From: an uncultured Azospirillum sp.
GTDB lineage: Bacteria; Pseudomonadota; Alphaproteobacteria; RF32; CAG-239
NCBI GenBank assembly: GCA_964521455.1
Contig: CAZFRT010000003.1
Coordinates: forward strand, 1-28,956
Direction: 5' to 3'
Length of the DNA: 28,956 nucleotides
The position numbers were made by a program, and so were the translations under genes. The first letter of the stretch is position 1. Each line of letters starts with the position of its first letter. Shown one piece after another: positions 704-23,168 of the stretch. The notes below the pieces were generated by a model that ran no database searches, had not been told where the DNA came from, and worked only from the letters and a program-made list of their open reading frames with translations.

Positions 704-1435
704 TTATTGAGCAGCTTTTGCTTCGTTCAAAGCATCTTGAACAACATTGCCGTCAATTGTCTGCAACATTGTACCGTTCAGGATAAGAGCCGGAACGCCA
801 TTAACCTGAATCTTATTAGCCAACTCAGCATTTTTCTTCAAAGCGTTTCTAACTTTTTCAGAACCTAAATCTGCTCTGTATCGATCCATATCCAAACCGA
901 TCTGAGCAGCAACTTCGTCAACTTTAGCTTCTGTCAATCTGCCGTTAACTTGGAACAAACCGTTATGCATTTCAATATATTTACCCTGCATATTGGCAGC
1001 CAAAGCAGCCTTTGCAGCATATTCGGAAACCGGAGAAACGAAAGTCAAAGCTTTGAAAGCAACTTTAACATCCGGATTATTTTCAATAACAGCTTTCAAG
1101 CCTGGGAACAATCTGTGGCAGTATCCGCAAGAGTAATCAAAGAATTCAACCAATACGACTTTAGCATCTTGATTACCGACAAACGGAGTGTCAGCATCAT
1201 TGTTAACTTCTTCAATGCTGTCCATAATCAATTTTTGAGCCTGAGCCTGAGCTTCATCTCTCATTTTCTGTTCATATTTCTGCATAGCATTAATAATCAT
1301 CTCAGGATTATTGTTCAAAGCTTCTTCCACCATGGCACCTTTATTACCGCAACAGCAGAAAACACACATAACCAAAGCTGCGATGGCAACAACCAATGCC
1401 ACTAAAGAAACATAAAGTGAATTTAATTTATTCAT
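704..1435 (-). CDS. DsbA-family (Com1/ScsC-like) thiol-disulfide oxidoreductase, membrane-anchored or exported
   Basis: EFFDYSCGYC active site (CxxC), cis-Pro loop VNGVP, N-terminal hydrophobic segment, and helical NNPEMIINAMQKY segment typical of ScsC/Com1-like proteins. Confidence 0.88.
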   Translation of the reverse strand: MNKLNSLYVSLVALVVAIAALVMCVFCCCGNKGAMVEEALNNNPEMIINAMQKYEQKMRDEAQAQAQKLIMDSIEEVNNDADTPFVGNQDAKVVLVEFFDYSCGYCHRLFPGLKAVIENNPDVKVAFKALTFVSPVSEYAAKAALAANMQGKYIEMHNGLFQVNGRLTEAKVDEVAAQIGLDMDRYRADLGSEKVRNALKKNAELANKIQVNGVPALILNGTMLQTIDGNVVQDALNEAKAAQ

Positions 1436-1614
1436 TATCAGTATCCTTAAGTTTTAAATTATAATCAAAAACATACTTAATTTAGCTAATCTATCTCATA
1501 TTTACAAGAGGAAATTAAATTTTATTTTTTAATTATTTTTGAAAAAATAAAGCTTTCTTTAACCATTTATGATAAAGTAACAACAGATAATTAACAATTT
1601 AAGGCAGGTATCTG

Positions 1615-2274
1615 ATGTTTCACATTCGCATTTCACTGTTTTCACAAACCAAAGCTCTGGAAAACAAAATAGATTTGTTTCACGATAAGATTATTGACGT
1701 TGCAATGACTTTCAAAAAAGCTATCAAAGTATTTTTGGTTGAACAACGCAGTGCCGAATACAAAAAATTGAGCAAACAAATCAAACAGATAGAACATGAT
1801 GCCGATGCCATTCGCCGTGATATAGAAAACAAACTTTATGTTGAGAATTTGCTTCCCGACTTGCGAGGAGATGTTCTCCATCTGGTTGAAAAGCTGGATA
1901 AAATTATTAACAAATATGATGAAGTTGCCCACGCTTTCTATATTGAACGTCCGGAAATTCCGGCTGAATACCATATGCGACTGACAGAACTCTGTGAACA
2001 AGTGATAGACTGTACAGAAAATATGGCTATCGCTTCCAGAGCGTTTTTTCGAGACATCGCCACTGTCAGAGACTACTCCCAAAAAGTATATTTTATGGAG
2101 CATGAAAGTGACATAACCTCAGCTCACCTAAGGGAAGCTATTTTTGATTCGGATTTGCCTCTGGCCAACAAAATTCAGCTCAGTTCCCTCATTAGCAAAG
2201 TAGCAGATATTGCCGACATTGCCGAAGACTGCATTGATGAACTTTTGATTTTCACTATCAAACGGGATATTTAA
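1615..2274 (+). CDS. DUF47 / PhoU-like phosphate transport regulator
   Basis: IEHDADAIRRDIE, FMEHESD and IADIAED helical motifs; its stop codon abuts the start of the PiT gene, the usual DUF47-pit pairing. Confidence 0.88.
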   Translation: MFHIRISLFSQTKALENKIDLFHDKIIDVAMTFKKAIKVFLVEQRSAEYKKLSKQIKQIEHDADAIRRDIENKLYVENLLPDLRGDVLHLVEKLDKIINKYDEVAHAFYIERPEIPAEYHMRLTELCEQVIDCTENMAIASRAFFRDIATVRDYSQKVYFMEHESDITSAHLREAIFDSDLPLANKIQLSSLISKVADIADIAEDCIDELLIFTIKRDI

Positions 2275-3327
2275 ATGGATATTACCTTTTTCATTTTTTT
2301 AAGCAGTGGTTTATTTCTGGGCTGGTCTCTTGGAGCCAATGACGCAGCCAACATTTTCGGAACCGCAGTCGGAACCCGTATGGTAAAGTTCAAAACCGCC
2401 GCAATCATCGCATCCTTATTTATCATTCTCGGAGCCGTTTATGCCGGAGCCGGTGCCAGCAAAACGCTGGGAGATTTAGGTAATGTCAACACCATTGCCG
2501 GAGCCTTCATGGTCGCTTTTTCCGCGGCACTCACGGTTTATTGGATGGTCGGCAGCGGCATTCCCGTTTCCACCTCTCAGGCAATTGTCGGAGCCATTGT
2601 CGGCTGGAACATCTATAGCGGAAAAACCACCGACATCGGCGTTTTAAGCAAAATTGTCAGCACTTGGGCAATTTGCCCGGCTCTTTCCGGAATAATTTCT
2701 ATATGCTTATATTATATTGTCAAAATCACCCTCAAGCATTCTAAAATCCATCTTGTCCGACAAGATTGCTATACCCGTATCGGACTGATACTGGCCGGAG
2801 CCTTCGGAGCTTATGCCTTGGGAGCAAACAACATAGCCAACGTTATGGGTGTTTTTGTAGATTCCAGTCCGTTTCACCCCGTCAATATGGGCATTCTCAA
2901 ACTTAACGGCACACAAATTCTCTTCTTAATCGGAGGAATTTCCATCAGTATCGGCGTCTTTACTTATTCCCAAAAAGTTATAAACACTATCGGAAACAAT
3001 CTCATGTCTATGTCTCCGCTTGTCGCATGGATTGTTGTGGTTTCCCAGTCTTTGGTCTTGTTCTTATTTGCTTCTCAGGGATTACAAAACTTTTTAAGCA
3101 GCCATGGACTGCCGACTTTGCCACTGGTTCCGGTTTCCAGCTCACAGGCGGTTATCGGGGCGGTTATCGGTATTGGGATTATGAAAGGCGGATCCTGTGT
3201 CCGCTGGTCAACATTAGGACGTATAGCCTTAGGATGGATAACCACACCGGTCATTGCCGCTGTTATATGTTTCATCTCCCTTTTCTTTTTGGAAAACGTA
3301 TTCAATCAAACGGTATTTTTACCTTAA
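2275..3327 (+). CDS. Inorganic phosphate transporter, PiT (PHO4) family
   Basis: Two signature motifs GANDAANIFGTAVG and GANNIANVMG; PVSTSQAIVGAIVG and PVSSSQAVIGAVIG repeats; many transmembrane helices. Confidence 0.93.
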   Translation: MDITFFIFLSSGLFLGWSLGANDAANIFGTAVGTRMVKFKTAAIIASLFIILGAVYAGAGASKTLGDLGNVNTIAGAFMVAFSAALTVYWMVGSGIPVSTSQAIVGAIVGWNIYSGKTTDIGVLSKIVSTWAICPALSGIISICLYYIVKITLKHSKIHLVRQDCYTRIGLILAGAFGAYALGANNIANVMGVFVDSSPFHPVNMGILKLNGTQILFLIGGISISIGVFTYSQKVINTIGNNLMSMSPLVAWIVVVSQSLVLFLFASQGLQNFLSSHGLPTLPLVPVSSSQAVIGAVIGIGIMKGGSCVRWSTLGRIALGWITTPVIAAVICFISLFFLENVFNQTVFLP

Positions 3328-3335
3328 AATAAAAC

Positions 3336-3365
3336 AGAAAACCTGACACTCTCGTCAGGTTTTCT
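3336..3365. terminator. Intrinsic terminator downstream of pit, probably bidirectional
   Basis: Perfect 12-bp stem agaaaacctgac-actctc-gtcaggttttct between convergent genes. Confidence 0.8.
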
Positions 3366-3410: not shown

Positions 3411-4145
3411 TTACATTTTTAAATTATTCCAGCCCTTTTTAACCGGAGCCTTTTTAATCGGAGCATTACCGGCCCCTTCCCATTGACGAATCGGAGCCGC
3501 AGCCTTTTTCTCCTGAACAATGGCCTTTTGCTCCGTATTTTGGGCAACCCCCACCGGTAGAAGCTGATTAAGCAGTGCCGGAGAAACGAACGGGATGGTG
3601 CTGGTTTTGAACGAATTAACCATCACATCAATAATTTCCGCCCCCGGTTTAAAGTTAAACGTCCTGAGTTTTCCACCGTAAAAAACTGAAAAAGAATGGC
3701 ACGGAGAAGAGAGTAAAACATCTGTGGCGTCAATTCCGCGAACAAAACGAAGCATCAGTTTCGGACGAATAAGACACTTATCCGGAACATTGCTGATATT
3801 CTCTTCCGTAGCAAAAAACTGCTTAACAATCATATCCCGCAGATCCGCATTGACAACACCGCAAAATCCGGTTACGGCCATACCGTCTATCGTATACCCG
3901 CTGTACCCTGCCGGACGATTCTCCACCTGATAGCAAAAAACCTGTTCCGCCTTGGTAATATTTTCCATTCCGGCTTGTCCGACAGAGTCAGAAATGCTTT
4001 GCAAAATAACCAAACGTTCCCCTTTCTGACGACGCCAAGCATCAGCTTCCTGCATAAACGATTGCACCCCGGAGGTTTCCTGAGCTAACGAGACTGTTGA
4101 AAACACCATTGAAACTCCCGTCATCAGCAAGGCAAGCAACTTCAT
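3411..4145 (-). CDS. Exported hypothetical protein with 4 Cys
   Basis: Long ORF; ATG at 4145 is 8 nt after AGGAG (the track's GTG at 4154 is less likely); signal peptide MKLLALLMTGVSMVFSTVSLA; no family recognised. Confidence 0.75.
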   Translation of the reverse strand: MKLLALLMTGVSMVFSTVSLAQETSGVQSFMQEADAWRRQKGERLVILQSISDSVGQAGMENITKAEQVFCYQVENRPAGYSGYTIDGMAVTGFCGVVNADLRDMIVKQFFATEENISNVPDKCLIRPKLMLRFVRGIDATDVLLSSPCHSFSVFYGGKLRTFNFKPGAEIIDVMVNSFKTSTIPFVSPALLNQLLPVGVAQNTEQKAIVQEKKAAAPIRQWEGAGNAPIKKAPVKKGWNNLKM

Positions 4146-4234: not shown

Positions 4235-4262
4235 AAAAAAACCCCTCGATTGAGGGGTTTTT
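4235..4262 (-). terminator. Intrinsic terminator of the pilM-like/pilV-like operon
   Basis: Stem aaaaacccctc/gaggggttttt with 4-nt loop; 7-U tract on the minus strand; 15 nt past the stop at 4278. Confidence 0.85.
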
Positions 4263-4277
4263 CAAACAATCTGCCGA

Positions 4278-7157
4278 TTACCACGGATCTGTATAATTTA
4301 ACTTAGGGTCATTCAAACGCGTGGTGTAACTACTTGTATTGGCTTTGTTATAAACAGCTCTCTTATTCAACAGCTGATCATAATCCCCAACATAAGTTGT
4401 ATTGAAGTTGGTTCGGTCAAAGTAACAGTAAACCGTCGCATAAGCCTCCAACTGCTGCTTAAATACCGGAAACAGATTCCAAATAATCGCCTTATCCTCA
4501 GCCACAGAACCATGACCAATTCCCAAATGAGTGAGATAATCCTTATAATACGAATACGGATACATAAAGCCCATAATCGCACTCCAACCGATAAAACTGG
4601 CATCACTTCCGTGTGCATAAACATTAGCTCTTAACCAGGTACTTTTTTGGAAATAAAGCGGTGTAGCCTCAGCACTCGGATCGGATAAAGCATCGGTAAC
4701 CGTTTTAGGATTATAATTTACTGCCACATCCGGACTCTTGTGGTTAGTGCCAGTATATTTACCCGGTGTACCGGCCTGAGCCATCGCCCAACCTGCCGGC
4801 GTAATGGTAATAACTTTACCATATCCCGGAGGACACTGTGGGGTCGGAATCCATCCCAACCACGGAGAAGTACGACAAGTATGAGCGGCACATTCATTAC
4901 TTGATGAACCCATCGTATCCAACTGAGTAGACGTTTTTCCCGTCCAATCCCCGACTTCCTCTTTATAAGTATTATCAACCACATAAATACCTTTATTAAT
5001 GAAATCCGGTAAGATATCACTCAAACGGGCACCGCCTCTGGTCGTCAGCTTAATATCATGCATTACCGAAGTATAAGCCGGATTAACCTGATAAGCATCA
5101 TATCCCACATATCCTCCGCTATACCCACCACTGGTTACAACCGGTAAAGCATTGGTATCCAAAACAGCGTTATCAACAAAGCGGTCTGCTTTGATATATC
5201 CCATAGCAGAGCTGTTCCCTGTTGTATGGTTTATTGTATCATATTGAGATTGTAATTCTACGACACCTTTTCTGATATAAACGCTTCCCTTGTTAGCATT
5301 TCCGGCAACAGCAGCCCCCGGAGCAATATTAATATAACTGGCATTCGGACCGCTGTCCACCTGCAAAACGCTGGACTTAATGTCCAATCGCGGAGCCCCG
5401 CCAGCATCCGTATGGTTGGCATAAATCACCGCATCACCGGCTCCGGCCGAATAAGGTGAAAAGACTAACGTATTGTTATTGGAACCGTCTCTGGTTAATT
5501 TAAACTTTTCACCGATTGCATAAAAATCATCCCGAACGTTAACTAATCCTTTTGACGCCGCATTTGCCGGACTTCTTGCCGTCAACAAATCTTCTTGGAT
5601 ATTTACGAGTTTACCGGCACTTGTTCCGATATTAACACCTGTGGCACCATAAGTTGTTGCCAACAAATCAGAAGTTATCCCGACACCGGTATTATTCATA
5701 ATCAAGCGTCTGTTGTCTGAAAGCCCGACATCCATGGTTGTCGTGTTTCTCAATTTTGTATCCGTTCCGTTAACACTAATCTTGGAACCGGATGTAGCCC
5801 CGACATTAAACGTATCTACATTAATATCGGCACTTGAGGCATCAAACTGAGCATACGCACCATTGGCACCGGCATTTAACGTCTGCGTTGCCGTAATAAC
5901 CGGAGCTTCAAACAAATTGGCATTAACCGTTCCGCTAAAGTTTCCGTTCACAGCCGTAATATCTCCGCTAAAGTTTCCGTTTCCGGCCGTAATGGTTCCG
6001 TTTCCCACATTCAAACTGGTTCCGGTAATCGGACCGCCGGAAATGGCACCGCTTCCCACATCCAAACTGGCACCTGTAATGGCTCCGCCAAAAGCACCGC
6101 TGCCACCGACCGTCAAGTTTCCGGTAATATTAGCCGTGGCGGCCTGCAAAGCACCTGAAATTGTTGCCGAAGCAGCACTTAAAGCACCTCCGATAGTTGC
6201 TCCGCCGGTAATGTTGAGAGATGTACCGCTGATATCACCGTTACTGGAGATTTTAGCTTTATTCCCGACATTAATACCACCTTTTTTCAAATACAGAGCA
6301 TTCTCAATTCCTCCATCCATCATATCGGCTGAATTGGCTCCGACAATCAACTGATTAATGTTCTTAATATTGTATTGCCTACCAGCTGCTTCACCCATGG
6401 AGAGGTCTGTTTCCATCGTGTTCAAATAATCTTTTCCGGCACGTTTATTTCGGTACAAAACATTTTCGCTGCTGTCACCGCCGCCGGAAGCACTGATGGA
6501 CTGCATGCTTGATGCCATAATCGCCCCGTTGCTGTAATCTCCGGCATTTAAGCCCAAATCTGTCTGCAGATTGTCAAGAGTCCAAATTCCCTGTACCCCA
6601 TTACCCTTGTTTCCGTCCACATAACCACCGTTACTTCCGACCATGGAAGCAATTCTTGATGCTCGGATCATCGGCAGAGTTTCATTATTCGGATTTGCGA
6701 CCAAAAAGGCCGTAATTGTTTTCTTGCGGCCGCTGTCTCCATCCACTTTTTTCAAAACAACTTTATAATTGCTGGAGAAAGTCTTACTATCTTGAGCTTC
6801 TTTATCACTTCCCAAAAAACCGTAAGGCAGGTAATAGCAAAAATGGTTAATAGGAACAGTAATATTGGCAGAGGAGTTAGTAAAAGAAGAATAATTAACG
6901 CTTGATGTTTTGCACTCGGACTGCGTAATTGTCTTTCCAGCAACCAGATCATCATAGTTATCTTTGACATAGTCATCAATTGATTTTATCAGACTTCTCA
7001 TCTGGCTGGCTGCATTAATATCCTGCAACTCAGTTGTCCGTTCTGCCGCTTTTTTATAGAGAATAGGAGTCACCATCGAAATCAACGCCAACATCGCCAT
7101 TGCTTCGACCATTAAACTACCGAGCTCGTTTAATCTCGAAAATTTACGTTTCACCAT
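4278..7157 (-). CDS. Type IV pilin-like PilV / shufflon-N-like pilus tip adhesin (959 aa) with Gly-rich stalk and uncharacterised C-terminal domain
   Basis: ATG at 7157 follows AGGAG by 7 nt. Class III prepilin signal: basic leader, G|SLMVE (Glu+5), hydrophobic helix. Motifs NGGYVDG..G..GIW, VLYR...YLNTMETDLSM and NGNFSG repeats parallel the R64-type PilV constant region as I recall it (LGGYIQDG..G..RSW, RLYR...DLNKMHTAIDM, GNFSG). Confidence 0.72.
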   Translation of the reverse strand: MVKRKFSRLNELGSLMVEAMAMLALISMVTPILYKKAAERTTELQDINAASQMRSLIKSIDDYVKDNYDDLVAGKTITQSECKTSSVNYSSFTNSSANITVPINHFCYYLPYGFLGSDKEAQDSKTFSSNYKVVLKKVDGDSGRKKTITAFLVANPNNETLPMIRASRIASMVGSNGGYVDGNKGNGVQGIWTLDNLQTDLGLNAGDYSNGAIMASSMQSISASGGGDSSENVLYRNKRAGKDYLNTMETDLSMGEAAGRQYNIKNINQLIVGANSADMMDGGIENALYLKKGGINVGNKAKISSNGDISGTSLNITGGATIGGALSAASATISGALQAATANITGNLTVGGSGAFGGAITGASLDVGSGAISGGPITGTSLNVGNGTITAGNGNFSGDITAVNGNFSGTVNANLFEAPVITATQTLNAGANGAYAQFDASSADINVDTFNVGATSGSKISVNGTDTKLRNTTTMDVGLSDNRRLIMNNTGVGITSDLLATTYGATGVNIGTSAGKLVNIQEDLLTARSPANAASKGLVNVRDDFYAIGEKFKLTRDGSNNNTLVFSPYSAGAGDAVIYANHTDAGGAPRLDIKSSVLQVDSGPNASYINIAPGAAVAGNANKGSVYIRKGVVELQSQYDTINHTTGNSSAMGYIKADRFVDNAVLDTNALPVVTSGGYSGGYVGYDAYQVNPAYTSVMHDIKLTTRGGARLSDILPDFINKGIYVVDNTYKEEVGDWTGKTSTQLDTMGSSSNECAAHTCRTSPWLGWIPTPQCPPGYGKVITITPAGWAMAQAGTPGKYTGTNHKSPDVAVNYNPKTVTDALSDPSAEATPLYFQKSTWLRANVYAHGSDASFIGWSAIMGFMYPYSYYKDYLTHLGIGHGSVAEDKAIIWNLFPVFKQQLEAYATVYCYFDRTNFNTTYVGDYDQLLNKRAVYNKANTSSYTTRLNDPKLNYTDPW
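5931..6080. repeat. In-frame coding direct repeats in the PilV-like stalk
   Basis: tccgctaaagtttccgtt at 5931-5948 and 5964-5981 (33-nt period, NGNFSG); near-identical 26-mers at 6004-6029 and 6055-6080 (51-nt period, ITGxSLxVG). Confidence 0.85.
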
Positions 7158-7182
7158 CTTCTTTCTCCTGCCTTTTCCGTCA

Positions 7183-7980
7183 TTAGTCAAACGGAGTTAA
7201 ATAAATCAAACAAAAATTACACGCACTGTCCGCTAAAATATCACCCGAAGGTTCTTCCTCCTCCGTATCTTCACTCCCGGCCTCCGCAGCCACATCATTG
7301 TCTTTCACACCATCGCCACACATCTCGCTGAACGAACGCCCGTTCTCCACTCCGCTCAATTTATTGGAGATAATGTATTGAGGAATGGAAACAAAGGTAA
7401 CTTCTCGAGCTCTTATCATCATTGTTGTTTTTAAGCCGTTTTCCGGTGCATCCGGAGAAACAAAATCCGCATATCCCATATCGGTACCCATACCGACAAG
7501 ATTCTGAATAGCGTTCAACATATCATTGTTCGGGCGGCCGGTACGAATATTCCGCCATTTTTGCGGCACACACCCAAACGTTGCCAAATATGTGATTGAG
7601 TTAGGGTCTCCGCAACAACTCGGTCCGCTTCCGCTACATCCGACCATTGCCTGACTGAGTTTGTTGCTTGTCCGATTCAAACAGTATAACAACGTTGTAT
7701 ATTCGCTGGTTGTCTGCGTACCGTTAAAACCATACGGTAAATACGGCTTCAAATGAGCAAAACTGATTTCTCCGGGGTGGTATGAAACGGTCGAAGAACC
7801 GTTATCAGGAGGCATGTGATCTCTGACATATTTTTGAGCAGCACGATGCTGTTCAACCAGCTTGGCAACCACGGCTTCAGCTTGCGGCTCAACATAGAGT
7901 TCCCTCATGTCAGACCTGGTTGAAAGATTAAACGAATACAAAATCGTAATAAACGTTGCCAATATTACCCAAATATACAT
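7183..7980 (-). CDS. Pilin-like membrane-anchored protein, possibly type IVb PilM-like; 8 Cys
   Basis: N-terminal hydrophobic helix without a class III leader, then amphipathic helix AEAVVAKLVEQHRAAQKYVRDH and the motif YLPYGF shared with the downstream PilV-like protein; 25 nt upstream of it on the same strand. Confidence 0.5.
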   Translation of the reverse strand: MYIWVILATFITILYSFNLSTRSDMRELYVEPQAEAVVAKLVEQHRAAQKYVRDHMPPDNGSSTVSYHPGEISFAHLKPYLPYGFNGTQTTSEYTTLLYCLNRTSNKLSQAMVGCSGSGPSCCGDPNSITYLATFGCVPQKWRNIRTGRPNNDMLNAIQNLVGMGTDMGYADFVSPDAPENGLKTTMMIRAREVTFVSIPQYIISNKLSGVENGRSFSEMCGDGVKDNDVAAEAGSEDTEEEEPSGDILADSACNFCLIYLTPFD

Positions 7981-8286
7981 TTATTTCAGCCTTCACCCCT
8001 TGTAACACTATATTCAGCCTACCATATTTTCATAATTTTTACCAGAGACATCATTGTTTTTTGTAAAGATTTCACATATCTGTAACATACAAATCTGCCC
8101 TTCTTCTCAGTATGAAATAATACAACAAAAACTATAATTATTAGTTAAAATCGACACCGCGAACCGACTTTCCGCTCTTCAATGCATTTTTCGTACAAAT
8201 TCCATGTAATAAGTCGCTTTTTAATGTTTAATTATAAAAAAAATATTATAAAATGCGAAATATATGTTTAAGTGCCGGAGTACAAA

Positions 8287-8817
8287 ATGGTTAATATTGA
8301 AAATGATGCGGACGAAAATATTTCCGACGAAAATCTAAAAATTATCGACAAGAAAAAGTTCTTGCTGTTCTTATTGCCGATATTGATTGTCATCGGACTG
8401 ATTGTCAGTTTTTATTTCATTTCCGGAAAAGACATCAATTCCGAAGAAGAGCTCCCTTACACTGTGGTTGATAAATCTACCGCGGAAGACGGCAGCAAAA
8501 AAAACTTGCTTATTTTCTACGATCTTCCGGAAATAAACGTACAGATCAAAACCGCCGAAGGGAAACAAGGACTTGCTAAAATCCGCTTAAGCATTGAAAT
8601 TCCTACCGTTGACGACATAAAAATCATTGAGGGACTCATGCCGCAAATCGCCGATGCCGTCATCGCCCATACACTGGAATTGACCGAAGACGAATTACAA
8701 GGATCCGACAGTCTTTACTATCTGAAAGAAGAATTACAATATCGTATGAACTTGATTACAGATCCTATAAAAATAACCAACTTAAACATCAAAAATTTCG
8801 AAATTCAGAAGAAATAA
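8287..8817 (+). CDS. fliL: Flagellar basal body-associated protein FliL
   Basis: Single N-terminal TM helix, FYDLPEINVQI, MPQIADAVIAH, LQGSDSLYYLKEEL..R motifs; immediately upstream of fliM. ATG 8287 follows GGAG (track start GTG 8272). Confidence 0.85.
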   Translation: MVNIENDADENISDENLKIIDKKKFLLFLLPILIVIGLIVSFYFISGKDINSEEELPYTVVDKSTAEDGSKKNLLIFYDLPEINVQIKTAEGKQGLAKIRLSIEIPTVDDIKIIEGLMPQIADAVIAHTLELTEDELQGSDSLYYLKEELQYRMNLITDPIKITNLNIKNFEIQKK

Positions 8818-8829
8818 GGAACAACTGAC

Positions 8830-9912
8830 GTGGCTGAGGAAAATAAAGAGCAAAACAACCAAACTTCGGATAAAGACTGGGCTGATATGATTCAGGTTCG
8901 CGGCGAAAATTCACAGGTCGCCATGCCGTCCGCCGACAACGGAGACACCAAAATTCTCAATCAGGAAGAAATTGACAGCCTGTTCGGTTATTCCGGAGAT
9001 GATGAAGAAACAGATTCCTACACAATGAAAACCGGAGTCAGAGCCATACTGAATTCATCAATGGTTTCTTACGAACGTTTGCCAATGCTGGATATCGTCT
9101 TTGACCGTCTTATCCGCATGATGGCAACTTCTCTGCGTAACTTCACACAAGACAACGTTGAGGTATCATTAGATAACATTGAATCAATGCGTTTCGGCGA
9201 ATATATCGATTCTCTGACTTTTCCGACACTTCTCGCCGTGTTCAAAGCTGAAGAATGGGACAATTACGGCCTGATGTCCGTTGATTCGTCCCTTGTATAC
9301 TCCATTGTGGATGTATTGCTTGGAGGAAGACGCGGAACAGCCGCCATGAGAATTGAAGGTCGACCATATACTACGATTGAACTAAACCTTGTCAAAGATA
9401 TGATTGAACTCATCCTCTCTGATTTATCAACAGCCTTTGACCCTGTAACTTCTGTTAACTTCTCATACGACAGACTGGAAACCAACCCTCGCTTCGCGAC
9501 CATTTCTCGCTTATCCAACGCGGTAATTGTCGCCCGTCTGAGAATAGACATGGAAGACCGCGGCGGAAAAATAGACCTGATGATTCCTTACGCCACGCTG
9601 GAACCGGTCAGAGATTTGCTACTCCAAATGTTTATGGGCGAACGCTATGGTCGCGATACCATTTGGGAAAATCATTTAATGGAAGAACTCTGGGAAACCG
9701 ACATTGAAATTAAAGCTATCCTGAAAGAAAAAAAGATTAGTCTCGGAGAAATTGCAAAATGGGACAAAGGTTCTTTTCTTCCGTTGGAAATGAACAGTAA
9801 TGAAGACATTACACTTATTTGCGGAGATGTTCCGTTAATCACAGGCACCATGGGACGCAAATCCGAACACATTGTCATCAAAGTAAAAGACAAGGCTGAA
9901 AAAAATGGATAA
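8830..9912 (+). CDS. fliM: Flagellar motor switch protein FliM
   Basis: ILNQEEIDSLFG CheY-binding motif, YERLPMLDIVFDR, LETNPRFATI, PYATLEPVRDLL and a C-terminal SpoA domain. Confidence 0.96.
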   Translation: MAEENKEQNNQTSDKDWADMIQVRGENSQVAMPSADNGDTKILNQEEIDSLFGYSGDDEETDSYTMKTGVRAILNSSMVSYERLPMLDIVFDRLIRMMATSLRNFTQDNVEVSLDNIESMRFGEYIDSLTFPTLLAVFKAEEWDNYGLMSVDSSLVYSIVDVLLGGRRGTAAMRIEGRPYTTIELNLVKDMIELILSDLSTAFDPVTSVNFSYDRLETNPRFATISRLSNAVIVARLRIDMEDRGGKIDLMIPYATLEPVRDLLLQMFMGERYGRDTIWENHLMEELWETDIEIKAILKEKKISLGEIAKWDKGSFLPLEMNSNEDITLICGDVPLITGTMGRKSEHIVIKVKDKAEKNG

Positions 9913-11069: not shown

Positions 11070-14000
11070 TTGGCACAAGCAAAAGACATATATAAAAAAA
11101 TTCTAAAACATTCAGCATTGTTTCTGAGTGTTTTTTGCCTGTCTGCTCCAATGGCTGTTTCCGGACCGGTCAGTTATGACACCATCGGAAGAACCATCTC
11201 TCTTGAACTGCCGATGGATGAAAAAACCGACTACAAAATTGAAGCAAAAGACAACAAAGTACAGCTTTCATTCAGCAAACCTTTATCTTACCCTATATCG
11301 GATATTCAAAAGAAATATCCGAATGTTATCTCCGACAGCCAAATGTCCAATGACCAAAAACAGATAACCTTAACAACAAAATTTCCGGTAAGCACAAAAA
11401 ACTTTCGCCGAAAAAATAAACTGATAATCGACATTTCTCCACAAAACACCATATTGACGGCAAATGGGATAGATGCCCAAAATAAAACTATTGCCATAGA
11501 ATACGGCAACCATCCTAAATTTGACCGATTTGCTTTCAAATATTCCGGCAGCAGAAGACCTAACATAAAAATCAGCCAAGAACCTCAAAAAACTATTGTC
11601 AGCGTTGGTAAGGATATTCGTTTGCTCTCGGATAATCTTCAAAATTATCCGGAAGCCAAACAAATTATGCAAGCTCGAAACAAAAATGGTGAACTGGAAA
11701 TCATTTTTCCGAAGAAACTCGTTCGAAACTTCGAAATCAACCACAAAATCGTAATTGATATAGAAAAATCAGTTAACGACGATTTGGAAGAAGATCATAC
11801 TCAAAAAACTATTCCGATGATTGTTTCATCCGAAAAAACCGTTGCAAAAAACCAACAACTGGCCTTAACCCAACTCATTCCGCAGACAAATGACCATTCT
11901 GTCGCCAGCTTGAGCTTTCCATGGAACATCCCTGTCAATCTCGCTGTTTTTCAAAGAAACGGCTATTTGTGGATTATTTTTGACCATCGTCAAAATGTTG
12001 ATATTGAGGAGTTGACATCCTTAACCGCAAAAATGGCCGATGAACTGCTCCAAATGCCTCATCCGAGTGCAACGGTTTTAAGACTGAAACTTAAACCGAA
12101 GGTTTATCCGTCTATTCGTAAAGAAGGCTTGCTGTGGATTATCGACTTACTGAAACAAGATACGTCAGACACAATTAAGGATTTGCCACTGTACACCCAA
12201 TATGACAGCTCAAAAAAACCTTACTTGTTCATCCCTACAACTGCTGCCGGAAATACCGTAACCATTATTGATCCTGCAATCGGTGATATTATCTCCGTTT
12301 CCCCGAGTTCTGAGCTAAAAAGCGGATTAAAAAACGCTTACAGCTATCCGGACTTTGAACTCCTTGACTCTACTCAAGGTGTTGCCATGGTCTTCAAAGC
12401 CCACGATGTTACATTGGATAGATCCAATGTCGGTTTGACCATTAAGGCTCTAAATCGAGGGCTTAATATATCCGCAAATCTGGAAAGTTTGAAAAGACAC
12501 GAAATCATTGTCCGAACAAAAGAAAATCTCCCGTCTTTAATTGCAGACATTCCGCAACAGATATTAAAAGAGAAATTCACCAAAGCGGAAGAATTACTCA
12601 AACAGGACATCTCATCTGCAGAAGAAAATGAAAAAGACAAAGCCAAAATGCTTCTTGCTCAATATTACATTTCTAAAGGTTTAGGAACAAATGCTCTCAA
12701 CGTCTTAAACAAAATGGCGGAAAACAAGTCCAAAGAAATCAATACGGAATACTACCAAGGTCTCATGGGAATTGCTAACTTCTTAACCAGAAGATATGAT
12801 CAAGCCATTGAAAACTTCTCATTCGGACACTTGCCTGAATTAAACGAGGCTATTTTTTGGAGAACCCTCGCTTCGGCGGCCAAGCAACCTCAACCGGAAG
12901 ATAATGTCGTATTACTTTCTTATATCTCACTAATCAAAGATTACCCGAATGAACTAAAAAACAGAATAGCCATGATCGGAGCTGAGATAGCCCTCGCTGC
13001 CGGAGATGACATGACCACTCAAAACTTTATAGATGTTCTTAAAACAACCGACAGTAAAAAGAATTATCAGGATGAGATTAATTATTTGAGTGCAAAAAAA
13101 TTCCTGATACAAGGTTATCCTCGTAATGCCATCAGAGAATTTCGCCGTGTTGCTGCAGGAAACTCACTAAAATATGCCGCTCTTGCCCGCAAACAAATTG
13201 CTAATCTCGAAATAGAACTAAATGCCACCAAACCGGAAAAAGCCATTAACGAGTTGGAAAGATTGCGTTTTGCCTGGAGCGAAAAAGAATTTCGCAAAAA
13301 CTTATTAGACAACTTGTCCGGATTATATATCCGTAACAATGATTATTACAATGCCCTGCGTTCATTACAAAAACTTCATAAGTTGAGTACGTCCGAAGAG
13401 CAAGAAAGAATAACCGAAAAAATGGTTTCTTTATTTGAAGATATCTACATAAACAATCGGGCGGACAATCTTCCGGCATTAAAATCTCTGGCTTTATATC
13501 AGGATTTTGAGTGGTTGGCTCCGAAAAGCAAACATTATAATATGATAATTCAAAAACTAAGCGATCGTTTAGTAGCTGTCGACTTATTAGATCGGGCGGA
13601 ACAGCTCCTAACCGACGAATTGAAAAACAATACATTATCTCCGGAAGAACGAGGATCTGCGGGAGCCCGTCTGGCTCTGATTTATCTGTTTAAAGAGCAA
13701 AACAACAACGCCCTCCGAATTTTAGATCAAACGGAATATGATAACTTGCCACAAACCCTTTATCTGCATCGCAAAATTATTCGGGCTAAAGCATTATCTG
13801 CCTTAGGTAAACAAGAAGAAGCCCTCGACTTGCTAAAGGATGATTACAGCCGCAACGCCCTGCTCTTAAAAAGCGAAATCTATTGGAATGCCGGCATTTG
13901 GGGACAAGCAGCGGATAATCTGAAGTACCTCATTGAAAAACCCGTTGAAGGAAAACCGCTGAGTCAAGAACAAATTAATCTGATTTTGGATTGGGCCACC

Positions 14001-14242
14001 GCTTTGAAAAAATCCGGCAAAGAAACCGTTATCGTCAGATTACGCAATAAGTTTATGCCTTATTTCAAAAATACCAAATATCATAGCGTATTTAACATCT
14101 TAACGAACCGTCTGGAAGATGATAAAATCGACATCAAACAGATTGACAACGTGATTAACGATGTGGCCGCTTACAGCGATTTTGCAAAAATATACAACAA
14201 TTCGCTGAGAAACATTAAAGAAAATCAAAATACAGAAACAAA

Positions 14243-14246
<4 letters not shown>
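11070..14246 (+). CDS. Large exported protein (1058 aa): beta-rich N-terminal domains plus TPR-like helical C-terminal half; putative flagellar motor accessory
   Basis: TTG start after AGGGA; signal-like hydrophobic stretch; repeated xxLxIDI beta-strand endings (AMIN-like); TPR-like helices ([37 protein letters not shown]). Confidence 0.75.
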
Positions 14247-16228
<1,982 letters not shown>

Positions 16229-16291
16229 TTGTTCCAACCAAACATTTTATCTGAAATTTCTGTATTAGGTACCAGCTAGACAAGTTTTAGA

Positions 16292-16439
16292 TGTCCATTA
16301 TACAAGTTTTTATAAAAACTTCGGAGAATGAGACAAGTAGAAGTATTTAGAAGGCGAGAAAAATTTTAGCGTACACAGACGTACGTGAATTTTTCGAGAC
16401 CACACTAAATGCTTCTAATTGTCCATTATACGAGTTTTT
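16292..16439. repeat. Palindromic RPE/MITE-like element flanked by ~20-bp direct repeats
   Basis: Direct repeats tgtccattatac(a/g)agttttt at 16292-16311 and 16420-16439; perfect 18-bp palindrome at 16304-16321; long imperfect hairpin ~16327-16428 with core gcgtacacagacgtacgtga. Confidence 0.72.
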
Positions 16440-16879
16440 TACTCTCTGTGATAAGGATGATGCTGTATAATCGTCTGCATACGGTAAATTTGTTCAGAGA
16501 GAACAGCACGCATTAACATATGCGGGAGAGTCAACTTACCAAAGGATAAAAGCAAATCGGCTTTATCGCGAGTGGATTGAAGATGCCCGTCAGCTCCACC
16601 AATTAAAAAACAAAGCTCGGAACAACCGTTTATTTGCCAGTTTTCAACTTTTTTTGCTAAATCGGTACTTTTCATATTTTCGCCACGTTCATCCAGCACA
16701 ATTACTTTTGCACCTGAAGGAATAGAAGATTGCAAAAAGCGAGCTTCTTCCTCCTGAACGGAATTATCCTTTTCCTTAATAACAATATCCCATCCCGAAC
16801 GCTTGACATATTCTTCAATAATCATCGCTTCCGGAGAATTCTTTTTACATTTGCCGATAGCCGCAATTGTTACTTTCAT
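16439..16879 (-). CDS. rlmH: 23S rRNA (pseudouridine1915-N3)-methyltransferase RlmH
   Basis: IVLDERGENMKS, FLIGGADG, LSFGKLTLPHMLMRAVLSEQIYR, HHPYHRE SPOUT motifs. Confidence 0.96.
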   Translation of the reverse strand: MKVTIAAIGKCKKNSPEAMIIEEYVKRSGWDIVIKEKDNSVQEEEARFLQSSIPSGAKVIVLDERGENMKSTDLAKKVENWQINGCSELCFLIGGADGHLQSTRDKADLLLSFGKLTLPHMLMRAVLSEQIYRMQTIIQHHPYHRE

Positions 16880-16898
16880 TTTTCACCTCAACTTTTCT

Positions 16899-16959
16899 TT
16901 TATACTCAAATCCCAGTAACGTCAATACTTCTTGACAATTAGACAAAAACAACTAAACT
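16899..16959. promoter_or_regulatory. Candidate back-to-back sigma70 promoters for rlmH (minus) and the inserted gene pair (plus)
   Basis: Minus: TTGACG (16925-16920), 15 nt, TATAAA (16904-16899). Plus: TTGACA (16932-16937), 16 nt, TAAACT (16954-16959). Spacers are non-optimal. Confidence 0.4.
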
Positions 16960-17004
16960 TCCGAAAGAATTAAATTGATTATTGTTAACTTAAAATAAAA
17001 GCGT

Positions 17005-17451
17005 ATGAATATTATTAAAAAAAATCTGATTACAGCTCGTATCTTCTTCTATCTGGCACACAACGACAAAGCCTTCTATGAAGAAAACAAGAGAAGATAT
17101 TTGATTTATCCGTTACACATCTGCAAAGCAAAAGTTCCTTTTTGCTCAGCCCAACAATCAGCTCAAATGCTGTCTGATATTCTGGAAAAAAACATTTCTC
17201 CCGAAAATCTGCTTTATGTGGAAGAAAATGATCCCTCAGTATTATGGACACCATTTAACGGCTGGATGTATGACAACGAAAACGGCGTTTTCTTTACTGA
17301 AAAAAATGGACGCCATATTTTGTTCATGGACAAGCGTATTTGGTACAATACCAAAAATACAATTATTACCGAAACAGAACACTGGTTTTACACAGCCATT
17401 CTTTGGCTTGTCTTTCTCGGTCTCCTGACACTTCTGGTAATTACCGCGTAA
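17005..17451 (+). CDS. Hypothetical protein with a C-terminal transmembrane helix
   Basis: 148-aa ORF ending in WFYTAILWLVFLGLLTLLVITA; no family recognised. Confidence 0.65.
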   Translation: MNIIKKNLITARIFFYLAHNDKAFYEENKRRYLIYPLHICKAKVPFCSAQQSAQMLSDILEKNISPENLLYVEENDPSVLWTPFNGWMYDNENGVFFTEKNGRHILFMDKRIWYNTKNTIITETEHWFYTAILWLVFLGLLTLLVITA

Positions 17452-17480
17452 GTCTTATTTAACGTTAATTTCAAATAACG

Positions 17481-17966
17481 ATGGATCCCTCACACTTGTA
17501 CATGTTTGTCGATTATGACGGTGTCGTAAAGACTTTCGCCGAGAACTTCCCTTTTTACCATGAACGGGAAAAGGCACCTTTCAGTCATTCCATGATAAGG
17601 ATTCTTTCCTGTATCGCCTGGAAAGCCAAGATACCGGCATATTTCATTCCGATATCTTCCACTCCGGGAAACTACAGTAAAGAAGAACTCAAAGCAATGT
17701 TTGTAAACATTTACGGAGTTGATAATCTGGATTTGCACCCTGACGAAGAAATTGTTCCGGTTCGAACCGAGCGAGATCATTACGTCAAACAAATCTTACA
17801 AAAATATCAGCCGCAATATCATCTTGTATTGGACGACGAAGCCTTTTGGTATGAAAATAAACAGCTAAATTACTTCCGCACCGACACATACAACGGAATA
17901 ACCCATCAAGTCTTTTGCAGATTATGGGACTTCGCCGAAGAAATTGCCGCTCATAACATTCAATAA
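17481..17966 (+). CDS. HAD-superfamily protein resembling the HAD domain of Swiss Army Knife RNA-repair proteins (HAD_SAK_2-like)
   Basis: Motif I FVDYDGVV, motif II ISST, R..YV..IL, motif IV HLVLDDE and terminal FRTDTYNGIT in a capless ~160-aa fold. Confidence 0.62.
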   Translation: MDPSHLYMFVDYDGVVKTFAENFPFYHEREKAPFSHSMIRILSCIAWKAKIPAYFIPISSTPGNYSKEELKAMFVNIYGVDNLDLHPDEEIVPVRTERDHYVKQILQKYQPQYHLVLDDEAFWYENKQLNYFRTDTYNGITHQVFCRLWDFAEEIAAHNIQ

Positions 17967-17985
17967 AGATTTGTTCCAAATTCCA

Positions 17986-18017
17986 AAAAAAGCGGTTCTT
18001 CCAAGAACCGCTTTTTT
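17986..18017. terminator. Bidirectional intrinsic terminator between the HAD gene and rsfS
   Basis: aaaaaagcggttctt-cc-aagaaccgctttttt perfect inverted repeat. Confidence 0.85.
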
Positions 18018-18018
18018 A

Positions 18019-18390
18019 TTATTCATCACGAATATTAGCTATTGCGTTCCACATTTTTTCAAGATTATAAAATTCTCGAACTTCCGGCTTGAAAATATGC
18101 ACAATCACATCAAAAGCGTCTATCAAGACCCAATCGGCTCTTTCTTCGCCTTCACTGACAGACTTAAAACCTTCAGCTTTGAGGTTTTCCTTAATTTTCT
18201 CAGCCAAAGAAGCCACATGACGCTGCGAAGTACCACTGGCAACCACCATCTGATTAGCAATGGAGGTTTTTCCCTTCAAATCAATAACCGTCACATCCTC
18301 TGCTTTCCCATCATCCAAAGTCGATGTAATAATCTCTAAAATTCTGTCTTCTGCATTTACTTCAGTTTTTTTTGCAGTTGCTTTAACCAA
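18019..18390 (-). CDS. rsfS: Ribosome silencing factor RsfS (Iojap)
   Basis: LDDGKAEDVTVIDL, MVVASGTSQRHV, DWVLIDAFDVIVHIF..EVREFYNLEKMW. Confidence 0.96.
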   Translation of the reverse strand: MVKATAKKTEVNAEDRILEIITSTLDDGKAEDVTVIDLKGKTSIANQMVVASGTSQRHVASLAEKIKENLKAEGFKSVSEGEERADWVLIDAFDVIVHIFKPEVREFYNLEKMWNAIANIRDE

Positions 18391-18408
18391 TATTCCAACT
18401 CCTTAACA

Positions 18409-19500
<1,092 letters not shown>

Positions 19501-19551
19501 TTAAAAGAAATTTAATCTCTACCGAAAAAATTACAACAGAAACCGGCAGTT

Positions 19552-19582
19552 AAAAATAGAGGGGATGACAAGACACCCCCTC
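19552..19582 (-). terminator. Intrinsic terminator after rplU-rpmA
   Basis: Minus strand gagggggtg-tcttgt-catcccctc (one G-U pair) followed by tattttt. Confidence 0.65.
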
Positions 19583-19607
19583 CACCGAAATTTGATTAAG
19601 AAAAAAA

Positions 19608-19862
19608 CTATTCGGTAACAACAGAAACAAAAGTTCTGTCATTGGCTTTTTTCTTGAATTCAACTTTACCTTCGGCAGTTGCAAAGATAGTGTGATCTTT
19701 ACCCATACCAACATTTGCACCCGGATGATACTGAGTACCACGTTGACGAATGATGATATTTCCCGGAATTACGGCTTCACCGCCGAATTTTTTAACACCT
19801 AAACGGCGTCCGATAGAATCACGTCCGTTATTTGAGCTACCGCCTGACTTCTTATGTGCCAT
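19608..19862 (-). CDS. rpmA: 50S ribosomal protein L27
   Basis: [44 protein letters not shown]. Confidence 0.98.
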
Positions 19863-19883
19863 AACTTATTCTCCTAAACTCAA

Positions 19884-20186
19884 TTATTTGCCGCAAACAT
19901 CAGTGATTTTAACTAATGTGATGTTTTGTCTGTGGCCGTTTTTACGACGATAGTTTTGTCTTCTCTTCTTTTTGAAAACAATAACCTTAGCGTCTTTAGC
20001 TTGTTTCAATACAAGAGCCTTAACAGAAGCACCTGCAACCAAAGGTGTGCCAACGGTTTCACCCATTGCCAAAACTTCGTTGAAGACAACTTCTTTACCT
20101 TCTTCACCGGCGATTTTTTCAATTTTTACAACATCACCAGATGCTACTTTGTATTGTTTTCCGCCTGTTTTAATTACTGCGTACAT
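19884..20186 (-). CDS. rplU: 50S ribosomal protein L21
   Basis: MYAVIKTGGKQYKV and KVIVFKKKRRQNYRRKNGHRQ; ATG 20186 is 7 nt after AGGTG (the track's 20192 start is too close to the SD). Confidence 0.97.
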   Translation of the reverse strand: MYAVIKTGGKQYKVASGDVVKIEKIAGEEGKEVVFNEVLAMGETVGTPLVAGASVKALVLKQAKDAKVIVFKKKRRQNYRRKNGHRQNITLVKITDVCGK

Positions 20187-20919: not shown

Positions 20920-21765
20920 GTGTTTAAGAAAACCAATAAATCTTTGATTTACGGGCTCCTGCTTTTGGCAATAACCGGTTGTAACTGGCAAAACCGCAGT
21001 ATCGGAGACATTGTTCGACACCCTTTCGCATCCGATCAAACTTTTGCTCAAGCTAAAATCAAATCATCCGGATCCATTGTTGTTTGTCGAACCAAACAAT
21101 GTGCTCCGGCTAAACTTTCCATGAGTGCGGAATATATTTACAACAGCCTGCTCCAATTGTTTAATAACAACAATCATCAAAAACTTCTCGTTTGCGAAGC
21201 TGACGCTTATACTCATGCTTGTTTGGAAAACTTTGTTACCATGCCGGTAAAAGTCGGCATCACACCGGCTTACGCTTATATTGACTCAGCTAAGATAACC
21301 GATGTAAATGTTAAAAGAAACAATACGCTTAACGTCATCTTAAACTATAACCTGACCTATAACGGACAATCTCCCGAATGTTTTCCTTCCAATGCTCTGG
21401 TTTATGTTAAAGACATAAATAACATCATTATGGAAGACGGCGGATATACTTGTAAAATGACAACCATCGGCCAAACCAACGTCAAAACCCTGTTTGCCAT
21501 AGATTATATTGATTTGGATTATGGGTACATCGGCGGATACTATTCCATCGGTCTATCCGGTCCGGCATTCGGCGGCGGTTCCGGATATATGATGTTGCGT
21601 TTTCCTAAAGACGCCTACCCGCTCAGTCCGGTATTGAAGGCAAAATCAATGCCTAAAGCTTTAAATAATGCTCAGCAGTATCTTGATGAAAACCTTCCGC
21701 AAAAGGTGGAAGAGTTAACTGAGACTATCAACACCAATGTTCAAATATTCCCGATAAAAAAATAA
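20920..21765 (+). CDS. Hypothetical lipoprotein, beta-rich with several Cys
   Basis: Basic N-terminus, hydrophobic core and lipobox ITG|C; 281-aa ORF; no family recognised. Confidence 0.75.
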   Translation: MFKKTNKSLIYGLLLLAITGCNWQNRSIGDIVRHPFASDQTFAQAKIKSSGSIVVCRTKQCAPAKLSMSAEYIYNSLLQLFNNNNHQKLLVCEADAYTHACLENFVTMPVKVGITPAYAYIDSAKITDVNVKRNNTLNVILNYNLTYNGQSPECFPSNALVYVKDINNIIMEDGGYTCKMTTIGQTNVKTLFAIDYIDLDYGYIGGYYSIGLSGPAFGGGSGYMMLRFPKDAYPLSPVLKAKSMPKALNNAQQYLDENLPQKVEELTETINTNVQIFPIKK

Positions 21766-21781
21766 TAATCCCCAGAGAACA

Positions 21782-21810
21782 TTGACAAAAAAGACAGAAT
21801 CTGATATAGC
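21782..21810 (+). promoter_or_regulatory. Sigma70 promoter preceding a ~200-nt leader
   Basis: TTGACA (21782-21787), 17 nt, TATAGC (21805-21810). Confidence 0.65.
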
Positions 21811-22018
21811 CATATTCAGTTGTTTAAGAATATGGCTACTATTTTGGTTGAAGGTTAGTTGTAATTTTGGGCTTGTCTCAAAATTCCGATTAAGGATGCT
21901 AAACGTAGAAATTCTGAGATGACTTTGTCTTGCTTGATTTTTTCAAGAATGTTCTCAAGACAAATAACAACATTACTTCATCGGAACATTGAAGCAACCA
22001 TCTAAAAATTCAAATCAG

Positions 22019-23086: not shown

Positions 23087-23110
23087 CTCTGCAAATGCGA
23101 AGCAAACATC

Positions 23111-23153
23111 AAACGAAGCGTTTTCCTATGATAGGAAAACGCTTCGTTTTTTT
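23111..23153. terminator. Long inverted repeat / terminator between convergent genes
   Basis: 19-bp perfect inverted repeat aaacgaagcgttttcctat-g-ataggaaaacgcttcgttt followed by T residues. Confidence 0.8.
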
Positions 23154-23168
23154 AGGGTTACACCCATA

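Follow-up and report, generated by a model that had tools for sequence, protein, structure and literature searches.

We analyzed a 28,956-bp stretch of DNA, hereafter the window, that makes up an entire contig (C3; CAZFRT010000003.1) of the genome of an uncultured Azospirillum sp. (GCA_964521455.1; 1.52 Mb in 200 contigs, 95% complete). On its minus strand, adjacent genes encode proteins of 265 and 959 residues, which we call PilM-like and PilV-like. With a probability of about three in four, the 959-residue protein serves the genome's own type IVb pilus as a PilV-type minor pilin that is processed by an A24 prepilin peptidase, helped or docked by the PilM-like protein, and incorporated first so as to end at the pilus tip, probably as a trimer displaying a conserved lectin-fold head on a variable stalk. 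The support drawn on directly is a prepilin signal, homology to PilV, the domain layout, the presence and co-distribution of pilus machinery, and the conserved pairing of the two genes. To our knowledge, almost all known PilV-type tip proteins come from conjugative plasmids and integrative and conjugative elements (ICEs). Such tips decide which recipients can be grasped and vary through shufflons. Here, a PilV-type module is a single-copy core gene of an uncultured order, exceeds the usual size more than twofold, and reverses the pattern by having a variable stalk and a conserved head. The initial annotation of this DNA had singled out the pair as an undescribed system, which is too strong a description for a minor pilin variant within a known type of pilus. 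As a so far unstudied variant, the module belongs to a known kind of adhesion device and extends known biology rather than founding a new class of system.

The PilV-like protein begins with a class III (prepilin) leader at residues 1-13 (7119..7157, minus strand) and has a predicted cleavage site between G13 and S14. The leader, MVKRKFSRLNELG, is followed by SLMVE (more fully, MVKRKFSRLNELG followed by SLMVEAMAMLALISMVTPIL), and all of the sequence features of a type IV prepilin are present: a short basic leader, Gly at -1, Glu at +5, and then a hydrophobic helix of about 20 residues. G13 (-1), E18 (+5), and most of the following helix were invariant in 48 aligned homologues sharing 35-87% identity, which argues that the class III signal, noticed in the initial annotation, is genuine rather than a chance resemblance. 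N_methyl was not matched by the protein in a direct Pfam scan. A miss by this model is usual for type IVb leaders.

Residues 14 to ~290 (6288..7118, minus strand) form a PilV-type pilin domain whose homology to the Shufflon_N constant region extends over the first two thirds of the latter. As a comparison reference, the PilV/PilM pair of a Citrobacter plasmid was used in place of R64 (AP005147); this PilV scores 246.8 bits on Shufflon_N. A profile of the PilV-like family aligned to it at 98.8% (hhalign, E 1e-16) over residues 19-271 and 209 columns, with the alignment ending at about position 230 of 324. The motifs YLPxGF, RIAxxIGxxGG, and LYR..LNTMxTxLxMG are common to the family and the Citrobacter protein. 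Residues 1-330 were also compared by tblastn to 72,556 plasmids, yielding 21 records with a best E of 1e-8 and query coverage up to 97%; 19 of the 20 listed fell on an annotated pilV and one on unannotated DNA. The PilV-like motifs pointed out earlier are thereby borne out, and homology of the N-terminal ~270 residues to the constant region of plasmid PilV is well supported by these sequence comparisons. Checking the protein against Pfam Shufflon_N and N_methyl, as the initial annotation had proposed, gave a match to neither. For PF04917 (Shufflon_N; cut-off 27.5 bits) there was no match in the window protein or anywhere in the genome, and homologues at 42-58% identity scored 26.9-38.9 bits, two of them (P0066 and P0117) clearly above the cut-off.

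In the full-length AlphaFold model, the pilin domain has a predicted local distance difference test score (pLDDT) of ~80-88. An exhaustive structural comparison with VIA-align matched it to PilM, TcpB (6.2), TcpA (6.0), CofA (5.7), and CofB (5.3), spanning Z-scores of 5.3-6.3. Among the weaker matches was PilB of Streptococcus sanguinis, which likewise fuses a pilin module to a large displayed functional module (PMC8179133). Unlike the protein described here, PilB belongs to a monoderm type IVa-like pilus and carries a von Willebrand factor A (vWA) effector module, and homology between the two is limited to the pilin fold.

The PilV-like family has three parts: the conserved pilin domain (residues 1 to ~290), variable repeats (~291-640), and a conserved C-terminal region (~641-959). 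The repeat region (5238..6287, minus strand) is rich in Gly, Thr, and Asn, has column identities of 15-30%, and varies in length among homologues. It holds 33-nt and 51-nt tandem DNA repeats (D1 and D4, at 5931-6084) that are in frame. Homologues match Pfam bactofilin/LbH at about the gathering cut-off or lower, and residues 346-424 gave a weak structural match to bactofilin (Z 4.0-4.4) where the model is of low confidence. This region is probably a beta-helical stalk.

We considered whether the 3' end of the gene is a shufflon and rejected this candidate, in agreement with the initial annotation. No inverted-repeat array or alternative segments occur around the 3' end of the PilV-like gene, no recombinase lies in the window, and the tandem repeats are in-frame 33-nt and 51-nt stalk units rather than inverted crossover sites. 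Three tyrosine recombinases are found elsewhere in the genome (contigs C22, C36, and C72). Many PilV proteins, such as that of PAPI-1, have no shufflon.

The C-terminal head (residues ~641-959; 4281..5237, minus strand) has two invariant cysteines, C775 and C911. Its block 681-720 is the most conserved of the whole protein, reaching a column identity of 0.84, and pLDDT is ~80 over most of the head in the full-length model. With VIA-align, residues 713-913 matched the C-terminal half of TcpB (Z 6.2), the lectin domain of discoidin I (5.7), SLL-2 (5.3), and HPA (4.8). With Foldseek against 350,542 PDB chains, the top three matches were all TcpB (E 9e-3, probability 0.93-0.94), and the next match had a probability of 0.08. 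The complex of TcpB with a TcpF peptide (7w64) is among the TcpB matches. Scores are modest, yet the two aligners agree on a target that makes biological sense, suggesting that the modeled head resembles the C-terminal half of TcpB and H-type lectins. Searching PDB sequences with the family profile gave no match. A phmmer search of the C-terminal part against 1.84 billion representatives returned 364 proteins; among the 150 matches listed, the head domain is C-terminal and mostly belongs to proteins of 830-1470 residues, with shorter entries looking like fragments.

These features relate the protein to two branches of type IVb pilus biology. Like PilV of IncI1/IncI2 plasmids (R64, TP114) and PAPI-1-type ICEs, it has a class III signal and a homologous N-terminal pilin domain followed by a Gly/Thr-rich beta region, along with a small PilM-type partner and a PilL/N/O/P/Q/R/S machine beside a type IV secretion system (T4SS). 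Unlike plasmid PilV, it is ~2.2 times longer (959 versus 431 residues, close to the doubling stated initially), is not accompanied in the window by shufflon segments, sfx-like repeats, or Rci, and is most conserved rather than variable at its C-terminus, which has no sequence relation to plasmid PilV tips. Its gene is also chromosomal, core to the order, and unlinked from the machine. TcpB from the toxin-coregulated pilus (TCP) of Vibrio cholerae and CofB, which belongs to CFA/III of enterotoxigenic Escherichia coli (ETEC), share with the modeled protein a type IVb pilin domain, beta-rich linkers, and a C-terminal beta-sandwich or lectin-fold head. Both TcpB and CofB rank among the top structural matches of the pilin domain as well as the head, and the product of a neighboring gene is likewise exported by Sec and carries a conserved aromatic motif in its N-terminal part. 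The differences are that no sequence similarity to TcpB or CofB was detected, that the stalk is far longer and built of repeats, and that the scores are modest (Z ~6, Foldseek E ~1e-2). The PilV and TcpB/CofB branches thus appear joined within one protein.

The partner gene (7183..7980, minus strand) is a 265-residue open reading frame (ORF). Its product starts with an uncleaved, nearly invariant N-terminal membrane helix (MYIWVILATF...), and includes, besides a long alpha-helix at residues 2-54, an alpha/beta domain containing four invariant cysteines. An AlphaFold2 model has a pLDDT of 82 and a predicted template modeling score (pTM) of 0.77. The best of 48,161 PDB chains in an exhaustive VIA-align comparison was E. 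coli PilM (3eoi; Z 7.8, 122 of 123 residues aligned), followed by CofB, PilA1, CofA, TcpB, and Pseudomonas aeruginosa PilM (3hg9; Z 4.6). Almost all top ranks are type IV pilins or pseudopilins, although individual Z-scores below 8 are within the aligner's stated background range. Foldseek gave no significant match in the PDB. Comparisons of sequence were negative: the family (62 database clusters) had no Pfam match in 34 of 34 members tested, PF07419 was matched by none of these 34 at E<=1 and nowhere in the genome, and hhalign against a 49-bit PilM gave 0.7%. The identification as PilM made in the initial annotation is supported by the modeled fold and not by sequence. Like R64-type PilM (PF07419; 3eoi and 3hg9), the modeled protein has an uncleaved N-terminal membrane helix and a pilin-like alpha/beta domain, and its gene adjoins that of a PilV; unlike PilM, it has 265 rather than ~145 residues, four invariant cysteines, and no sequence similarity.

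Profiles of the PilM-like and PilV-like families aligned to each other at 57% (hhalign, E 1e-4 over 44 columns) and have a weak YV(R/K)D...YLPYGF segment in common. This is suggestive of distant paralogy, which it does not establish. A small ORF with an N-terminal helix also precedes pilV on a Ralstonia plasmid and has no Pfam match; the PilM-like family showed no similarity to it by hhalign.

No recombinase, relaxase, secretion ATPase, or secretin was found among the window genes. The initial annotation's statement that pilus machinery is missing is accurate for the window and does not extend to the genome, in which a search for type IV filament genes recovered a full type IVb cluster and a prepilin peptidase. 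That such genes be missing from the entire genome was the refuting condition set initially, and it does not apply. Specifically, the minus strand of contig C12 carries in order a TcpQ-domain (PilL-like) gene, a PilN secretin, PilO, PilP, an ATPase, a T2SSF platform protein, and pilin genes, which amounts to a PilL/N/O/P/Q/R/S cluster of the R64/PAPI-1 type. The PilN-family type IVb secretin scores 285.9 bits on TIGR02520 (cut-off 287.65), PilO matches PF06864, and a 477-residue protein with a PilP domain (7451-8884 of locus L009 on this contig) scores 40.3 bits on TIGR03021 (cut-off 34.65). The GspE/PilB-type T2SSE ATPase and the platform protein match PF00437 and PF00482, respectively. Two pilins are of the PilS/bundlin type (PF08805/PF05307), and a third, weaker pilin-like gene has no Glu at +5. 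The PilS-type cleavage site, G/RSMVE, is close to the G/SLMVE of the PilV-like protein, and the sole A24 prepilin peptidase is encoded on contig C122 (PF01478, 68.6-70.9 bits). The cluster lacks pilM and pilV, and the pair in the window supplies exactly these two, with the PilM-like protein being the only PilM candidate in the genome.

PilV-like and PilO-like genes recur across the order. Among 151 genomes sampled, 150 carry the PilV-like gene as one long open frame, covering 20 of 20 genera, and 150 of 151 carry a PilO-like gene. These counts confirm a lineage-wide gene, chromosomal as initially described, and indicate a core, vertically inherited trait rather than statistical coupling, because related genomes are not independent samples. 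PilV-like and PilO genes were never close; in one genome (G038), for instance, both are on one contig, at 486 kb and 61 kb. The order's synteny is conserved from 86% down to 39% PilV identity: fliL and fliM diverge from the module, which runs from the PilM-like gene through the PilV-like gene to one for a protein of 241-247 residues, followed by PHO4 and PhoU in the opposite direction and DsbA in that of the module. A horizontal island was considered as the module's origin and not supported, given this synteny and a G+C content of 0.42-0.46 that is like that of neighboring DNA.

Beyond the order, a class-wide sample of one genome per family gave a match in 8 of 100 other families, all in genomes of 0.9-2.3 Mb. 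One of these (G168) has a PilV-like gene of 1016 residues and then a PilM-like gene of 284 residues. Another (G188) has a 381-residue gene with a similar N-terminus (MFYWV...), not detected as a homologue by tblastn, and then a PilV-like gene of 924 residues. The pair is thus adjacent in three alphaproteobacterial families and in both gene orders. In neither genome is the pair flanked by the third gene or by flagellar genes, which argues that the pair is the conserved unit and that the position next to fliL and the third gene are features of the order.

Taken together, these results suggest the following course. The PilV-like protein would be exported by Sec, and the A24 peptidase would cut its 13-residue leader. 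Its N-terminal helix and pilin domain would then enter a filament of PilS-type major pilins built by the unlinked machine (PilL/N/O/P/Q/R). By analogy with PilV, CofB, and TcpB, we infer that it most likely initiates assembly and thereby comes to lie at the pilus tip, probably as a trimer; CofB and TcpB are trimeric initiators located at the tip (PMC6048534, PMC9565799, PMC5207764). The long, variable, beta-helical stalk would hold out the conserved TcpB-like head, which would bind a ligand. The 265-residue protein would act as a pilin-fold, membrane-anchored analogue of PilM and work with the PilV-like protein at the base of the machine.

Several points weigh against this assignment. Direct scans of Pfam and NCBIfam assigned no useful family to any of the three module proteins, the PilV-like protein reaching no pilin or Shufflon_N threshold, and the Shufflon_N region is matched over only about two thirds of its length. 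The full-length AlphaFold model is poor overall (pLDDT 57, pTM 0.31), leaving the stalk and the most conserved segment (674-719) unmodeled, and structural Z-scores of 5-8 are in the range that the aligner warns common arrangements can give. The similarity of the 265-residue partner to PilM is structural only and comes from a model. In none of the genomes examined are these genes linked to the pilus cluster, so their functional link to it rests on complementarity and on co-occurrence in relatives that are not independent. The organism is uncultured, and the pair is known here from genes alone.

As for what the head binds, the initial annotation's proposal of a host or cell-surface adhesin was overstated. 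Since conservation peaks in the distal domain and this domain resembles TcpB, a binder of a secreted partner protein, the head may recognize a protein partner instead of a host surface. Candidates that do not exclude one another are a host or cell-surface ligand, the surface of a cell targeted by the T4SS (possible, if unlikely), and the neighboring secreted protein (somewhat more doubtful). The module offers a concrete handle on how these flagellated, little-known bacteria with small genomes attach, whether the target is the surface of a host, a partner cell, or a bridging protein that is secreted. A literature search on the pili of this lineage returned nothing relevant.

The T4SS comes into question because its genes lie divergently beside the pilus cluster (14930-19945 of locus L009), comprising a TrbC/VirB2-like gene (24.2 bits, below cut-off), an 851-residue protein without a family, and a VirB4 cut by the contig end. 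The Ralstonia and Citrobacter plasmids share this layout, with their pil genes preceded by VirB8-11. All 41 genomes of the order that were sampled for VirB4 carry it, in most cases on the contig of PilO and ~7-25 kb away from it, so that the T4SS appears to be a core trait of this lineage. Contig C14 encodes a VirD4-type coupling protein, and contig C12 ends with a second ATPase, short and PilT-like. The pilus and its PilV-like tip could accordingly serve the adjacent T4SS, as in R64, TP114, and PAPI-1, with the tip recognizing a target bacterium or host cell and retraction bringing about the contact required for transfer. As a precedent, transfer by IncI2 and PAPI-1 is reported to owe its recipient specificity to PilV adhesins (PMC9045228, PMC5297154). 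However, adjacency of T4SS and pilus does not show functional coupling, and there is neither a shufflon nor another variation mechanism that would widen the recipient range. No relaxase matching PF03432, PF08751, or PF03389 was found despite 95% completeness, a search that left other relaxase families aside. We hold service to the T4SS to be a minority prospect.

A second alternative centers on the third co-oriented gene (3411..4145, minus strand), which has a GGAG ribosome-binding site before an ATG at 4145 and encodes a secreted protein of 244 residues. This protein has a Sec signal peptide, conserved cysteines, and a conserved GVQSF....DAWRR a few residues past the predicted signal cleavage. 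More than 518 homologue clusters exist, none of the Pfam or NCBIfam families was matched, and an ESM Atlas look-up gave unnamed clusters only. The gene occupies the same position in relatives at 86% and 39% PilV identity, and the initial annotation's two-gene module consequently needs qualifying: the pair is real, but within the order it has this third conserved neighbor. From its sequence, the 244-residue protein could be a partner of the pilus tip or a secreted cargo. The minor-pilin trimers of CFA/III and TCP bind CofJ and TcpF, respectively, the secreted proteins encoded with them, through an aromatic segment at the N-terminus of the latter; the type IVb pilus secretion signals of CofJ (Phe10) and TcpF (Phe1/Tyr5) are N-terminal (PMC6048534, PMC9565799).

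By analogy with CofB-CofJ and TcpB-TcpF, a trimer of heads would capture the flexible N-terminus of the 244-residue neighbor, and the pilus would export it or carry it at its tip, making the neighbor the real adhesin or effector. This would fit the head's best structural match, which includes a TcpB-TcpF peptide complex, and its being the most conserved part of the PilV-like protein, unlike a diversifying adhesin. It would also fit the synteny of the third gene across the order and the position of GVQSF....DAWRR, which resembles that of the CofJ and TcpF signals. Conversely, a terminator separates the PilV-like gene from the third gene, no homologue of the third gene is beside the pair in the two other families that keep it, and no evidence from sequence or fold ties the 244-residue protein to CofJ or TcpF, the resemblance of the motif being positional only. 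A TcpB-like head next to a secreted protein makes a CofJ/TcpF-like arrangement plausible on positional evidence only, and on balance we doubt that the neighbor is the real adhesin or effector.

Elements of both alternatives could be combined. Rather tentatively, this order of Alphaproteobacteria with small genomes, so far represented by metagenome assemblies only, may have fixed in its core chromosome an IncI/PAPI-1-like contact apparatus made up of VirB-type T4SS, type IVb pilus, and PilM/PilV tip module. The tip would have been rebuilt as a stalk-and-head protein of 900-1,470 residues with an invariant TcpB-like head that maybe captures the secreted neighbor. The result would be an organelle for delivery upon contact with a host or target rather than a mating aid.

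It is very improbable that the PilV-like protein is no pilus component but a membrane-anchored or secreted fiber or adhesin with a leftover pilin-like N-terminus, or a protein with a flagellum-related role: although its gene lies apart from the pilus cluster in all genomes examined and has a conserved divergent arrangement with fliL-fliM, and although 959 residues is very large for a subunit passing a secretin, Gly -1 and Glu +5 are invariant, the cleavage site is like that of the PilS pilins, the homology is specifically to PilV, the pilus cluster has no pilV and pilM of its own, the pair is not beside flagellar genes in two other families, and the large type IVb minor pilins CofB and TcpB pass secretins as trimers (PMC6048534).

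Returning to the locus of the PilV-type minor pilin, the initial annotation correctly described two co-oriented genes with their own terminator. The longest ORF of the PilV-like gene is 4278-7190 with a TTG start, and the likely true gene is 4278-7157 (both minus strand). Its ATG at 7157 has AGGAGA 7 nt upstream and gives 959 residues, the same as the database entry (P0001), making this the likely start rather than the TTG. Directly 3' of the stop codon is an intrinsic terminator hairpin (4236-4263, minus strand) that was read directly from the sequence and folded: a CCCCUC/GAGGGG core between A and U runs with -17.4 kcal/mol and a z-score of -4.1, equaled by none of 200 shuffles. A consensus pattern scan missed this terminator because its flanking A and U runs pair together. 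The hairpin is kept in a relative from the same genus, and a 39%-identical relative has a different hairpin in the same place. A second intrinsic terminator follows the third gene (3336..3365, minus strand; a 13-bp stem then a T run) and was found by the consensus scan. A single three-gene operon was considered, and this candidate is weakened by the terminator between the second and third genes. A sigma-70-like promoter candidate (8231..8259, minus strand; TTCGCA-17-TATAAT) with 10 of 12 consensus matches precedes the PilM-like gene, in the intergenic region between it and the divergent fliL; it is a pattern match only, and the region has no more such matches than its shuffles.

Neighbors in the window are core genes, as had been stated, including those for polyprenyl synthase, DsbA, PhoU, PHO4, FliL, FliM, UvrB, Obg, and a two-component system. 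The DsbA-family oxidoreductase (704-1435, minus strand) is a conserved neighbor of the module within the order. A functional link between it and the module is possible because all three module proteins have conserved cysteines in their sequences.

Several further observations concern the pilus cluster. It opens with a 631-residue protein of no known family (12493-14388 of locus L009, minus strand). Its PilP-domain protein is unusually long, with 477 residues versus ~150-200 for PilP in the plasmids examined. Between the PilS genes and the PilT-like ATPase is a 483-residue sulfatase-family protein (940-2391, plus strand; Pfam Sulfatase 91 bits over residues 222-457), which may be a phosphoethanolamine-transferase-like enzyme that modifies pilin or lipid. 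Unlinked from both the cluster and the window, the minus strand of contig C26 has a pilin-like ORF of 182 residues with a class III-type N-terminus, MKSRINERG followed by QTMIEVIMILGF, that may be another minor pilin.

Elsewhere in the window, three successive ORFs of 281, 365, and 772 residues (20920-25487) have no Pfam match at E<=1e-4. The uvrB gene (14243-16228) is present as two ORFs of 513 and 144 residues with a break near 15784-15794. Relatives have a single gene of 660-661 residues, and the split may reflect a frameshift, a pseudogene, or an assembly error. Downstream of fliL-fliM-DUF6468-MgtE_N-like is a 1058-residue protein without a Pfam family (11070-14246, plus strand). It is kept in the same place in relatives, where it has 993-1054 residues and faint tetratricopeptide repeat (TPR) matches, and may be a lineage-specific flagellar-associated protein.

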